Position numbers and translations under genes: made by a program. Under the pieces are notes generated by a model. The model saw only the letters and a program-made list of their open reading frames with translations. It searched no databases and was not told the origin of the DNA. Source: Centroscyllium fabricii (taxonomy: Eukaryota). Taken from it: a stretch of DNA of 64,000 nucleotides. Positions 11,893-29,023 of the stretch are shown here, piece after piece; positions within the stretch are counted from its first letter, which is position 1, and every line of letters begins with the position of its first letter. The DNA lies in NCBI GenBank assembly GCA_051313645.2, contig JBNRSN020000002.1, positions 568,602,001 through 568,666,000 on the forward strand, read 5' to 3'.

Positions 11893-12515
11893 AAGAATCC
11901 AACTCTGGAAAACGGTGCCCAGACTAACCAGCTGGGTGGAGGAAAGAGCTGCAGCAGTTTATTAAATCCTTTCTAACTCTTGTGACACAAAGATTTCAGC
12001 GGCCAAAACATGTATCCATTCTTTGAGACATGAAGCTAGAATTTACAACAACAATAAATAGCAGCTAATCGTTTCACCCATTCTATGACATTCCCCCGCT
12101 CCATATTATAATGGAGGGGTTCGGCCATTTATTTCTGTTAAATGCTGGGATACAGGAATGCCACAGGAATGTACTGAGCCTTCATCTGGAACGGCTGGAC
12201 AGGCCGGGCTTGTATCCGCTGGAGTTTAGAAGAGTGAGAGGCGACTGGATTGAAACATAGAAGATCCTGAGGGGTCTGGACAGGGTGGATGTGGAGAGGA
12301 TGGTTCCTCATGTGGGAGAATCTAGAACTTAGAAACATAGAAGATAGGAGCAGGAGTCGGCCATTCGGCCCCTGGAGCCATTCAATGCGATCATGGCTGA
12401 TCATCCAAACTCAGTACCTTGTCCCTGCCTTCTCTCCATATCCCTTGATCCCTTTAGCCTGAAGAAATATATCTAACTCCTTCTTGAATATATTTAATGA
12501 ATTATTATTATTAAT

Positions 12516-12786
12516 AAAATAATAATAATAATAATAATTCAACTTTATTGTCATTATATAATGTACAAGTACATGAACAGCAAAGCCGCTGCATCTGTGC
12601 GCGCCGCCATTCCATCTTTCCATCATTCCGACAATCTTCAGCCAACGGCCCCTCTCCGGGGCTCCTTTCGTGACCTTCTGCACCTGCTATTCCCTGGTGG
12701 TCACCCATCCAAGAACTAACCAGGCCTGGCTCTGCTTAGCTTCCAAGCCTTGCCAGTGACCCTGTCCCTAGTCCCAGGAACAGGGC
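12516..12786 (-). mobile_element. 5S rRNA-derived SINE (SINE3-like) with Rex1/Babar-like tail, inserted in a CR1
   Basis: 12680-12747 reads CTTGGAAGCTAAGCAGAGCCAGGCCTGGTTAGTTCTTGGATGGGTGACCACCAGGGAATAGCAGGTGC (5S internal control region). Tail AATGACAATAAAGTTGAATT(ATT)n. Confidence 0.7.
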
Positions 12787-13434
12787 TGAACAGGCCTCTA
12801 CGGCCCTCTGTGGTAGAGAATTCCACAGGTTCACCACTCTCTGGGTGAAGAAATTCCTCATCTCTGTCCTAAATGGTTTACCCCTTATCCTTAGACTGTG
12901 ACCCCTGGTTCTGGACTCCCCCACCATCTGGAACATCCTTCCTGCATCTAGTCTGTCCAGTCCTGTTAGAATTTTATGAGTTTCAATGAGATCCCCTCCC
13001 ATTCTTCTAAACTCCAGTGACTATAAGCCCAATCGACCCAATCTCTCCTCATACATCATTCCTGCCATCCCAGGTATCAGCCTAATGATGAGGGGTCACT
13101 GTTTAAAAATAAGGGGTCACCCATTTAAGACAGAGATGAGGAGATTTTTTTTCTCACAGAGGGTGGTGAGTCTTTGGAACTCTCTTCCTTAGAGGGCGGT
13201 GGAAGCAGAGTCTGTGAATATTTTTAAGGCCGAGGGAGATCGATTCTTGGTAAGCAAGGGGGCGAAAGGTTATCGGGGGTAGGCGGGAATGTGGAGTAAT
13301 CGGATCAGCCGTGATCTTATTGAATGGCGGAGCAGGCCCGAGGGGCCGAGTGGCCGACTCCTGCTCCTAATTCGCATGTTCATATGTACTAACTACAATT
13401 TCTATCCCAACCTGCATAACTATCAATTTATAAA

Positions 13435-13655: not shown

Positions 13656-13859
13656 GATCAATTTTTAATGCTCAATTTTCCAAAATAAAATCGAGAAGGC
13701 GTACAGCACTAAAGATTATCCGTTGGTTCACAGTACTCTTTCATTAATTCAAGCTCCAACCTTGGCGCATTAGCTTTGTGACTGCAATACTTCGCAGTCC
13801 ACCAAGAAAGAACTTGCATTTATCCAGAATCTTTCAAAAACTCAAGACGCCCCAAGGAC

Positions 13860-14700
13860 GGCACCTCCGACAGTGCAGTGCTCCATCAGTACTGCCCCTC
13901 TAACAGTGCAGTACTCCCTTAGCACTGCCCCTCCGACAGTGCAGTGCTCCATTAGTACTGCCCCTCGGACAGTGCAGCGCTTCCTCATAACTGACCGTCC
14001 GACAGTGCGACGTTCCCTCAGTACTGACCCCTCCGACAGTGCCGCACTCCCTTAGAACTGCCCCTCTGACAATGCAGCACTCCCTCAGTACTGCCCCTCC
14101 GACAGTGCGGCGCTCCCTCAGTACCGCCCCTCCGACAGTGCGGTGCTCCCTCAGCATTGCCCCTCCGACAGTGCGGTGCTCCCTCAGTACTGCCCCTCCG
14201 ACAGTGCGGTGCTCCCTCAGTACCATCCCTCAGACAGTGCGGTGCTCACTCAGCACTGCTCCTCCAACCGCCCATCCGACAGTGCGGCGCTCCCTCGGCA
14301 CTGCCCCTCCGACAGTGCGGCGCTGCCTCAGTACCGCTCCTCCGACAGTGCGGTGCTTCCTCAGTACTGCCCCTCTGACAGTGCGGTGCTCCCTCAGCAT
14401 TGCCCCTCCGACAGTGCGGTGCTCCCTCAGCACTGCCCCTCCGCCAGTGCGGCGCTGCCTCAGTAATGCCCCTCCGACAGTGCAGCGCTCCCTCAGTACC
14501 GCCCCTCCGACAGTGCGGTGCTCCCTCAGTACTGCCCCTCTGACAGTGCGGTGCTCCCTCAGCATTGCCCCTCCGACAGTGCGGTGCTCCCTCAGCACTG
14601 CCCCTCCGCCAGTGCGGCGCTGCCTCAGTAATGCCCCTCCGACAGTGCAGCGCTCCCTCAGTACCGCCCCTCCGACAGTGCGGCGCTCCCTCGGCACTGC
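13860..14700. repeat. 33-bp minisatellite (about 25 units) inside an internally deleted DeuSINE (about 13805-14805, minus)
   Basis: Unit ccctcagtactgcccctccgacagtgcggtgct. SINE sequence resumes on both sides. Confidence 0.9.
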
Positions 14701-15019
14701 ACTGAGAGTGTCAGCCTAGATTTTGTGCTCAAGTCTCTCGAGTGGGGCTTGAACCACAAACCTTCAGACGCAAGAGGCGAGGGTGCTGCCAACTGAGCCA
14801 CGGCTGCCACCTGCAGACTGGCAAAGCAAGTTTTGCCATTGAAAGAAATCCTTTAACCGAACACTATCTGTGCTGACGTGACCTTTCTACCTGGCTGCAG
14901 TGAATTTGGACAGCTAAACTCCGTAAAAACATCTCTTTCTTATTTAAGCGGCCCCTTCAATTACATTCTGATGCTTTCTGCTGAGTAAGATAAATGGAGC
15001 AGATGCGAGTCAATGTTAC

Positions 15020-24757: not shown

Positions 24758-25553
24758 TTGTATCTCTTGGCCAGTGAAGTCGTCCCCCAATTCAAATCCC
24801 AGCGCATTGATTAGGATTGCATAAAATCCCGTTAAAGTTTGTGAATGGTGATGCACTAGGATTCAGGCGGCACACTGGACTCATTTCAGAAACAGATGGC
24901 TCTTGTGAGCGGAAGATGGGAAGATTGGAAGGTTGGGATTAAAATGACTGGAGAACCACTTTCTGTTGTTGCGATTTTTCACCTGCTCTGTTCTTACCTG
25001 ACCCGCCCACTGTTTTTCGCACTTGTCCCCTTTCCCATTGTTAATCTCCAAAAATTTGCCGAGCTCTAATGGATTCTCACATAGACTCGTAGCGATGCAC
25101 GGCACAGGGGGAGGCCATTCGGCCCATCGAGCCTGGTCATGGAGTCATTGGGCCGGATTTTCCGACGGCCCCCCTGAGGCCAAACGCGTGAGTACGGAGT
25201 GGGTACTCATGCGTGCGGCCCTCGGAAGTGCTGGTTCTGTGCATGCATAGACTCGTAGCGATGCACGGCACAGGGGGAGGCCATTCGGCCCATCGAGCCT
25301 GGTCATGGAGTCATTGGGCTGGATTTTCCGACGGCCCCCCCGAGGCCAAACGCGTGAGTACGGAGCGGGTACTCACGCGTGCGGCCCTCGGAAGTGCTGG
25401 TTCTGTGTGTGCACCGAGCGTGCGCACAGAACCAGTACTTCCGATGCTGGCTCGGGGTGGGGAGTCAAGAGCCGGAGCGCGTTGCCCTGCGCACCAGAAC
25501 CTCCATTCTTTAGATATTCCTCTTCCACCTGGGTCTGATCCCAACAGCAGTCT

Positions 25554-26458
25554 CAATTCAATTCAATTCAAGTTTTATTGTCATTGCAGAGTACTAGTAC
25601 AATACAACGAGACGAAGACTCGCCACTCCCGAGAGTAGTGCAAATAAATTACATGCAAATTGCATACAGTAAAGTACATTATCAGGCGTGCAGGTACCGG
25701 AGTTTTTTTTTAAGAGTTCAGGAGGCTGACAGCCCTGGGGAAGAAGCTGTTCTTAAATCTAGTCGTGCGGGTGCGAATTGATCTGTAGCGTCTCCCGGAG
25801 GGCAGGGGGGCGAACAGACTGTGGCTGGGGTGTGTGGGGTCTTGAATAATGTTCATAGACCTCCGTAAGCAGCGTTTGAGGTAGATGCTTTCCACTGACG
25901 GTAGCTGTGTACCGGTGATTCGTTGGGCAGTTTTGACGACCCGCTGCAGGGTTTTCCGGTCCGAGATGGTGCAATTTCCATACCAGACTGTGATGCAGCT
26001 TGTCAGTATGCTTTCTATTGTGCAGCGGTAGACGTGGGAGAGGATGCCGGATGACAGCCTGGCTTTCTTCAGCTTCCTTAGGAAGTACAGGCGCTGTTGG
26101 GCCTTCTTGACCAGAGAGGAGGTGTTTAGTGACCAGGAGAGGTCTTCCGAGATGTGGACCCCGAGGAACTTGAAGCTGGACACCCTTTCCACCTCAGCCC
26201 CTTGGATGAAGATGGGGGTGTGTCTTCTGCTTCCAGTCCTCTGGAAGTCCACTATGATCTCCTTGGTTTTCTTGGTGTTCAGTGCCAGGTTGTTGTCAGC
26301 ACACCAACCCACAAGGCGCTGGATCTCATCCCTGTAGGCTGACTCGTCGTTGTTGGTGATCTGGCCAACCACCGTGGTGTCGTCCGCGAACTTGATGATC
26401 GTGTTGGAGCCATGGACAGCCGCACAGTCGTGAGTGAAGAGGGAGTAGAGGAGGGGGC
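25554..26458 (-). mobile_element. Rex1/Babar-type LINE, 5'-truncated (RT C-terminal half, ORF to 25710)
   Basis: SPLLYSLFTHDC...IIKFADDTTVVGQIT...KKAQQRLYFLRKL motifs. (TTGAA)n tail. 30-bp flanking duplication 25524-25553/26459-26488. Confidence 0.85.
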
Positions 26459-26908
26459 TCCACCTGGGTCTGATCCCAGCAGCAGTCTGAAACCCTTCTC
26501 AATATTCAGAAGCCGAACCCTCATTTCTGTTAAACTGTACCATGCTCGGAAATTGAATCCATCTTCATTGAACGTTAGGGCCCAGATTTCGCTGAAAAAA
26601 TAACAAGCGTCTGATCGGCGCTCGCCATTATTACTGCGCGAAGCGGCCGGCAATTCGTGGCGAGGGAGAGACTCCCCGTGACTTGCAAATCGCCGGCTGG
26701 TTTTTGCTGCTCCGCCGTTCACCTCACGAAATCGGTATCTTGTCCGCAATCTCTCCGGGAGCTTTCACAAGTTGCTGCAGTTGCACATTAATTACCCGTT
26801 AAACGCGCCGCAGAAAGTGAAGTCTAGTGATTAACAGCGTAAGTACCCCCTTTACCGACGTGCTGATGGCTGCCAAACAACCTCTCTTGCCCAGAAAGTG
26901 AAAATTAT

Positions 26909-28082: not shown

Positions 28083-29023
28083 GGGCCCTGTTTTCCTGTG
28101 GCCCGATTGCTGCGGGTGCGCGCTCACGTGCACCCGCGGCGCATGCGCACGTAATATATATATTTTTTCTGACGGCAATTTCCTGTGGAAAATGCCGGGT
28201 TTTTTTGCTGCGTAGGGGTCTGGTTTTTTTTGGTGCGTGGTGCTTTGTGCGTAGGTTGTGAGCAGGCCACGCCCACTGAGGTCGGCTTTCCCCCCGCACA
28301 AAGCACAGAATCGGCCTCAGGACAAAGAATATCGGGTAGGAAGCACCTTGTTTTTTTAAAGTTTCTAGGAAGCACCTTGTTTTTTTTAAGTTTCTAAGAA
28401 GCACCTTGTTTTTTTTAAGTTTCTAGGAAGCACCTTGTTTTTTTTTGGTGGAAGTGAAAAAAACACGTTTAAAGGTAAGTTTTTTTTTGATTCCTTTGCA
28501 GATATTTGTCTGTGGTCTTTCAGCTTTTAAATGAGTAGGGGTTTTTTTTTGGTGAAAGTGAAAAAAAAACGGGTTTTTAACGCGAATTAAGCAGCTGTGA
28601 TGGCCATCAGAGCTGCTGACATCGCGTTAAAAACCCCGTTTTTTTTTCACTTTCACCAAAAAAACAAAAATCCTACTCATTTAAAAGCTGAAAGACCACA
28701 GACAAATATCTGCAAAGGAATCAAAAAAAAAACTTACCTTTAAACGTGTTTCTCCACTTCTCAAAGCTGCTGCAGCACCTCTAAGACTGCGTTTTAAATG
28801 TGCAGCTGAAGAGAGACTTGCCCACGTGATACACACGCATTTTGAGCAGCTGCCACAGGAAATCGGCAGCTCAAAGTCTTCCTGGGTAGGAAGCTGAAGC
28901 CCCTTGCCCATCAGCACAGGAAATTCACGTTTCTGGTAATCACCCGAGCTGCACCCCCATGAGGCATTTCTGACCCCCCTTCGTGGGGGTGCAGCTCTTC
29001 TGGAGCACAGGAAAACAGGGCCC
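28083..29023. mobile_element. Harbinger-like MITE with a long internal palindrome
   Basis: Perfect 18-bp TIR GGGCCCTGTTTTCCTGTG and TSD AAT. About four copies of a 28-29-bp tandem repeat at 28338-28445. Palindrome at 28452-28759. Confidence 0.85.

Follow-up and report, generated by a model that had tools for sequence, protein, structure and literature searches.

The systems closest to the element described here are four short SINEs (CoeSINE5, SINE-1_Pmo, HaSE3 and Ped-1) in which a 5S head is followed by a LINE's 5' and 3' parts joined together, the donor being an RTE element in each case (PMC5786205). In the excerpts of that work (Kojima 2018), the LINE 5' parts of SINE bodies stem only from RTE and Vingi donors, and ORF-less bipartite derivatives only from RTE, Ingi, Vingi and R2 sources. 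Why few LINE clades give two-ended derivatives was left open there, with sampling bias, ribozymes and transcription needs named as possible causes. The vertebrate families zebrafish SINE3, AmnSINE1 and OS-SINE1 similarly combine a 5S head with the tail of a CR1-group LINE, their partners being CR1 or RSg-1 and their body the Deu body (PMC3747384, PMC7245038), and vertebrate SINE3 elements are described as moved by CR1 (Kojima 2020, PMC7245038). Heads in which only box A, the intermediate element (hereafter IE) and box C are kept, with divergent sequence upstream, are known from the Ajax TRIM, an LTR element, and from the lepidopteran SINE3 families CsSE2 and SINE3-1_ChrCul, for none of which Rex1 parts are reported in the available text (PMC10886601). 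Finally, a SINE paired with a Rex1 LINE has been described from a sea anemone (SINE2-5_NV with Rex1-24_NV; Ohshima 2013, PMC3747384). This is the sole Rex1-SINE pair among the table rows available from that paper, though SINE2-5_NV differs from the present element in its tRNA head, its invertebrate host and the absence of a reported LINE 5' end.

The locus analysed here lies in a stretch of 64,000 nt, hereafter the window, and holds what we regard, with a probability of roughly 0.8, as a young, high-copy SINE that has the promoter half of 5S as its head and likely Rex1 ends, and that likely owes its transcription to RNA polymerase III (Pol III) and is likely copied by a Rex1-type protein. As in other SINE3 elements, a 5S head with box A, IE and box C, a short dispersed unit and a LINE tail with simple repeats are present. 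As in bipartite bodies, both ends of one LINE lineage follow the head, but the donor appears to be of Rex1 type instead of RTE or Vingi. The element also departs from the SINEs of Kojima 2018 in keeping the extreme 5' end of the LINE, including its start codon, and in having no regular target-site duplications (TSDs). From zebrafish SINE3, AmnSINE1 and OS-SINE1 it differs, as far as their descriptions go, in its Rex1-type ends and in the loss of the 5' half of 5S. It may thus be described as a SINE3 on a bipartite Rex1-type unit, a design that is itself already known. The same holds for promoter-only 5S heads with divergent sequence upstream (Kojima 2024, PMC10886601), so that a replacement of the 5' half has precedent.

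No paper on this family or on a bipartite Rex1 element was found in a literature search that lay outside most subscription journals and Repbase Reports. The excerpts of PMC5499810, PMC5381603, PMC7599744 and PMC10294476 hold nothing on the family, and the fish rows available from a table in PMC10946416 include no cartilaginous fish. It seems rather unlikely that the family has already been catalogued.

Anatomy of the window copy

Read on the minus strand from 12787 to 12501, the element first shows a hairpin, then a stretch resembling 5S, then a body followed by a tail, and finally (ATT)n repeats, and reading of the sequence thereby confirmed the four parts and the order proposed in an earlier note on this DNA. 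The limits had been placed at 12516-12786; an element does lie there, but it runs from 12787 to 12536, with tail repeats to 12501, so that the whole copy occupies 12501-12787. The family unit measures 286 nt, to which tail repeats are added. The window copy is missing 34 nt of the tail, a deletion absent from the other 29 best copies, and it carries 6 substitutions over 252 aligned nt relative to the family majority.

The 5' hairpin (12759-12786, minus strand) contains G-U pairs as previously proposed, but has 12 bp instead of 11. It is not derived from 5S, its fold taken alone is unusually stable (z -4.4, 0/200 shuffles), and its closing G-U is changed to G-C in 16/59 copies. Next to it lies a second non-5S segment (12745-12756, minus strand), an imperfect inverted repeat of box A with which it is predicted to pair (fold of 12756-12726: z -2.3, 1/200 shuffles). 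The 5S rRNA-derived part (12674-12744, minus strand), recognised by RF00001, corresponds to nt 47-117 of the genome's own 5S gene (L034). Within what we take to be the limits of the boxes on 5S, it includes on the same strand box A (12727-12741, 5S 50-64; 14/15 identical to the genome's own 5S), IE (12719-12724, 5S 67-72; 6/6) and box C (12694-12711, 5S 80-97; 15/18). A 5S stretch with about 10 mismatches in 68 nt had been anticipated, and its presence was upheld with an amended count: over 72 nt, 8 mismatches to the own 5S gene separate the window copy and 6 the family majority, which is identical at 66/72 positions over 5S nt 47-118 without gaps. 5S nt 4-45, on the other hand, match the unit at only 11/42 positions. 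The 5' half of 5S is absent and the front 43 nt are unrelated to it, as the earlier claim of a replaced 5' half had it.

What had been called a unique body of about 100 nt proved to be so only in its first part, a linker of ~62 nt (12612-12673, minus strand) that found no match in 1.29 Mb of fetched DNA with SINE copies masked. The last 31 nt of this body (12580-12611, minus strand) correspond to the extreme 5' end of a Rex1-type LINE and equal its first ten ORF codons (28/31 identical to the LINE). The distal part of a Rex1-type 3' tail follows (12536-12579, minus strand; the 34 nt deleted in the window copy are the proximal part), and the element closes with (ATT)n and then (AAT)n repeats (12501-12535, minus strand), the last bases of which match the target site. 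The same switch from (ATT)n to (AAT)n is seen in several other copies (L005, L094, L214, L227 and L229).

Rfam reported only 5S over the element (RF00001 at 12672-12793), with 28.9 bits against a gathering score of 38, and ARAGORN found no tRNA over it. A score below the 5S cut-off is what a degraded 5S pseudogene, or a chance chimera at a single locus, might give. Such an origin is refuted by thousands of dispersed copies that share the same composite structure between unrelated flanks, and its probability is negligible.

Two further features of the window were observed. A near-perfect inverted repeat of 246 nt at 28483-28728, which scores as a spurious microRNA family, is likely a MITE-like element, and a 33-nt minisatellite forms two arrays ~30 kb apart, at 13817-14797 and from 44493.

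Copy number, age and variation of the family

A DNA search of the 7.2-Gb genome returned 1,584 candidate copies, 40 of which were scored, and the 30 best define a 286-nt unit with unrelated flanks. An exact 42-nt pattern from the tail matched 11,653 times genome-wide and an exact 36-nt pattern from the head 4,109 times, with 0 matches for the reversed-pattern control in either case. The first 30 matches of each pattern were sampled, all of them on one contig and one locus occurring in both sets, and were the SINE in 30/30 cases for the tail and 30/30 for the head, with one head-picked copy interrupted at nt 71. The tail-picked copies share a common 5' end, 26/30 beginning within the first 14 nt. 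The single copy or chance chimera that the earlier note had considered does not apply, and the search yielded instead a multi-copy family with a consensus unit and a shared start. Capture-recapture estimates of 87,000 copies (from 4/30) and 123,000 copies (from 1/30) support only a figure of tens of thousands. Among 58 pattern-picked copies, the median divergence from the majority was 3.4%, or 2.7% without CpG sites; the 1.1% obtained among the 30 best copies is biased toward best matches. The family is young and high-copy, with more than 11,000 copies in the genome.

The variation among copies is unevenly distributed. Changes outside CpG sites amounted to 3.6-4.8% in box A and box C, compared to 1.9-2.4% in the linker, LINE 5' piece and tail, so that other parts of the element are better conserved than the promoter boxes, an observation that speaks against our main reading. 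The variation of the boxes arises partly through shared variants, and the difference between the 31-nt LINE 5' piece (1.9%) and the linker (2.4%) is not meaningful. The same 10-nt deletion inside box C was found in 9/57 copies that fall into two backgrounds by their nt 29, an indication that it recurs. A second deletion type in the box C hairpin (window 12694-12711) was present in 5/57 copies, and point variants in this hairpin keep a GNRA-type loop. A possible explanation for the recurrent deletions is that the reverse transcriptase skips a hairpin.

Sampled words of the SINE were also sought in public sequencing runs, where 16 runs from nine studies hold half or more of them; among these are six coded organism labels and one for fish gut, besides two possible sources that carry no label.

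The 5S-derived head as a probable Pol III promoter

The internal promoter of 5S fixes the transcription start at a set distance, irrespective of the sequence found there. If the element has such a Pol III promoter, the 5' end of the unit is expected near the 5S start, and it indeed falls at 5S position +4. Judged from this fit, the SINE is likely transcribed by Pol III. Two of the retained parts, IE and box C, bind TFIIIA (PMC3123226). No run of four T occurs in the unit. The first 107 nt fold as three hairpins (z -5.4, 0/200 shuffles as stable), namely the new 12-bp one, a stem formed by nt 32-43 and box A, and one made by the 3' arm that the unit keeps from 5S; the whole 43-nt head alone gave z -1.9, with 10/200 shuffles as stable.

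The origin of the parts that are neither 5S nor LINE was also addressed. Neither 1.29 Mb of masked DNA nor two 5S repeat units held a match to the head (nt 1-43), and the linker (nt 115-176) was not above shuffles against any of 12/12 copies of family E, a headless derivative described below. Family E as a source of the head was considered and, for now, rejected: 5/12 copies were alike (0-3/300 shuffles), but the likeness vanished against the majority of 20 further copies (329/2,000).

Among the 5S genes of the genome, two spacer classes with the same coding sequence were observed (L031-L042), and a 5S tandem array with a period of ~2.5 kb lies on contig C742. A second 5S-derived insert (L186:6110-6325, minus strand) has a recognisable full 5S head, a different body, an (AAG)n tail and a target-site duplication of roughly 10 nt.

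The LINE-derived ends and their candidate partner

In the family unit, nt 177-207 correspond to a LINE 5' end and nt 204-286 to a LINE 3' end, and the overlap of 4 nt between the two pieces would fit an internal deletion between short repeats. The LINE in question, here called RexA, is represented in the window by a 5'-truncated copy (25554-26460, minus strand) with RVT_1 and PF09004 domains, ending in (TTGAA)n. The 5' piece of the SINE matches the 5' boundary of RexA at 28/31 positions in most comparisons and at 26-28/31 overall. Of 30 loci selected for the endonuclease domain, 18 share this boundary and 12 are truncated at the 5' end. Similarly, the SINE tail (nt 204-286) aligns to the window LINE tail with 62/85 identities (z 9.3, 500 shuffles), and the comparison scores were 18-21 for CR1-like and other repeat ends versus 74.5 for RexA. 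The tail likeness that the earlier note had placed at 25554-25600 is found there on the minus strand, although the shared tail measures ~83 nt and not ~35. The match to RexA is nevertheless modest (71-73%; E 3e-4 to 0.04, and unreported at E 0.05 in another search). A 7-bp stem at the tail base is kept in the SINE and is 89% paired over 8 tails, compared to 23-71% in slid registers, with a covariation over the 8 tails that was not above shuffles (103/500). From these alignments, the SINE is composed of a 5S promoter half and the joined 5' and 3' ends of one LINE lineage, the latter making up the last 110 nt. By eye, the LINE start codon is kept in unit nt 178-286 (L002) and the frame runs without a stop across the tail and on into the repeats, which is probably chance for so short a stretch.

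RexA is abundant (131,513 first-look candidates, 150 scored) and has a strong RVT_1 domain, a weak Exo_endo_phos domain (E 8e-4, below the cut-off) and PF09004; no paper joining Rex1 with DUF1891 was found. All six long copies carry both the 5' end and the tail, four of them measuring 3.08-3.10 kb, and an unbroken frame of 988-990 aa from an ATG in the shared 5' piece is present in 2/6, the other 4 being broken. There is no ORF1, only the single frame opening at the 5' end. Rex1/Babar elements are described as encoding an AP endonuclease and a reverse transcriptase and as having a conserved 3' UTR and an oligonucleotide repeat end (PMC6274825), and Rex1 has been reported without ORF1 (PMC13343379). 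Moreover, the peptides encoded by published Rex1 primers (PMC3728117) occur in RexA at 6/7 and 4/7 residues, 573 nt apart, with 3-4/7 for CR1-like controls on the first, which lies within one mismatch in 118/120 of the RexA homologues listed; the DNA-level primer comparison gave no discrimination. None of these 120 listed homologues bears the name "Rex1", all being RT + PF09004 proteins, mostly from teleosts where named. Based on its domains, single ORF, repeat-ended 3' UTR and primer-encoded peptides, RexA likely belongs to the Rex1 group. In neighbouring stretches, 14 LINE matches are 92-97% identical to one reference copy, and the SINE and RexA are of similar age.

The RexA protein (L133:1044-3101) was observed to be 65-70% identical to teleost proteins, for example of Seriola and Collichthys. 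For a presumed cartilaginous-fish host this is a high value, and it agrees with transfers of Rex1 between rays and teleosts that have been reported (PMC13343379). Rex1-like families other than RexA, at least four in number, with proteins 48-76% identical to RexA and different tail repeats, were seen at L026, L110, L144, L147, L183, L186, L188 and L190.

The repeat ends of the two elements differ, the SINE ending in (ATT)n and both RexA and family E in (TTGAA)n. Together with a tail that is only 73% alike, this makes RexA a candidate partner and not a shown one. The earlier proposal of a 5S SINE mobilised by Rex1/Babar accordingly keeps its multi-copy SINE and Rex1-type tail but loses its direct tie to the window LINE. 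The same two differences would be expected if the SINE were copied by another LINE, either a rare or extinct (ATT)n-ended Rex1 lineage or a different CR1-group clade, with RexA merely a relative. The presence of at least four other Rex1-like tail types, and the fact that family E and a fragment F match the SINE tail as well as or better than RexA (z 10.8-15.2), point the same way. However, no LINE with SINE-identical ends was found among 34 (30 examined), 19, 6 and 28 matches of four end patterns, all of which were SINE copies, fragments or family E, and 464 kb of neighbouring DNA held no LINE with the SINE's exact ends. RexA, moreover, combines intact frames with a similar age, an accepted elephant shark SINE-LINE pair shares 78.6% (PMC5499810), and some SINE copies (L091) have extra TTGAA units in their tails. 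Copying by another LINE is therefore improbable in our judgement, and the window LINE is best regarded as a relative and as no more than a candidate partner.

A headless two-ended derivative

A pattern placed on the shared 5' piece gave 28 matches, divided equally between SINE copies (14) and a second, non-coding family of 0.4-1.0 kb, family E (14; L266-L313, e.g. L281:1495-2120), for which a first look gave 1,787 candidates. Family E starts at the Rex1 5' end (82-88% identical to RexA over 41-51 nt), continues with a GC-rich, repetitive middle of variable length that RexA does not match, and has a Rex1-type tail at its end. In 20 further copies the common 5' end was sharp, and the tail lay 419-1,022 nt away in 18/20. 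At both ends the SINE is closer to family E than to RexA, with 30/31 identities to the majority 5' end of E and tails that are 76-80% alike (10 copies). By its sequence, family E is a bipartite Rex1 derivative in its own right, and by analogy it would be the kind of intermediate that Kojima's model predicts, but with an extra middle.

These two families also bear on how the SINE is transcribed. The element holds the LINE's 5' end, which may well be the site of the LINE's own promoter, and box C is variable and often partly deleted, as could be the case if the SINE were a non-autonomous Rex1 derivative transcribed by Pol II, with the 5S piece as a passenger. We hold this to be very improbable, as 26/30 unbiased copies start at the head, which lies ~175 nt upstream of the piece from the LINE 5' end, and do so with Pol III spacing. 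Family E, devoid of a 5S part, has its start at that LINE piece.

Host site and mode of insertion

The window copy sits in the 3' coding end of an abundant repeat, presumably a CR1-like LINE, of which 12793-13100 (minus strand) forms the 5' side, with empty copies 92-94% identical. The host repeat resumes on the 3' side (12330-12500, minus strand) without a target-site duplication. The empty host copies carry no duplicated bases at this position, and at the 3' joint of the window copy the tail and the target match over a short stretch. At the 5' junction, five extra bases (12788-12792, minus strand) that repeat the start of the head and are absent from the empty host copies are likely the trace of an aborted template jump; head duplications also occur in L008 and L016.

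Scarce TSDs are usual for CR1-group elements. A check for them across the SINE found no regular duplications, with TSDs of at least 6 nt in 3/87 copies against 0.9 in the control. Among 42 distinct RexA copies, 2 have TSDs of at least 8 nt, the long ones measuring 30-35 nt. In the TSD listing the end of an imperfect tail is set wrongly, and negative gaps at empty sites are partly artefacts for this reason. The RexA copy of the window was seen to be flanked by a 30-nt direct repeat (25524-25553 and 26459-26488).

Proposed mechanism and implications

From these structures we infer the following course of mobilisation by a Rex1-type protein. TFIIIA would bind box A, IE and box C, and Pol III would start at a fixed distance upstream, whereby the sequence lying at that distance would become the new 5' end of the element. 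As the unit lacks a T4 run, transcription would continue until a T-run is reached in the tail or flank. The single-ORF Rex1 protein would then bind the 3' stem-loop and nick the DNA, target-primed reverse transcription would take place on the (ATT)n repeats via short matches to the target, and microhomology would help to join the 5' end, leaving blunt joints or small deletions. As to its origin, an internally deleted Rex1 derivative related to family E may have gained a 5S-promoter head, a route that Kojima 2018 proposed for RTE-based SINEs (PMC5786205).

A further reading, which we advance tentatively and would not yet bet on, is that Rex1 is an unreported source of ORF-less bipartite elements and that its protein needs both RNA ends. 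The 31-nt piece would then be a cis-signal for the Rex1 protein and not a promoter, which would explain its retention inside a Pol III SINE as well as at the beginning of family E. If true, bipartite derivatives would quite generally be linked with single-ORF LINEs. No description of how Rex1 recognises its RNA was found in the literature consulted, including the available part of PMC13343379, where no other CR1-group element is reported to have been transferred horizontally as often as Rex1.

For the question of why few LINE clades give two-ended derivatives, the Rex1 case would add a clade of the CR1 group, and the occurrence of a headless family E, a headed SINE and an intact LINE in one genome makes that question testable. 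A young family of such size is, moreover, a source of insertion markers. If the tentative reading given above is correct, the family would be the first vertebrate SINE3 driven by Rex1, and its head would provide a natural test of how the 5S promoter places its start site.
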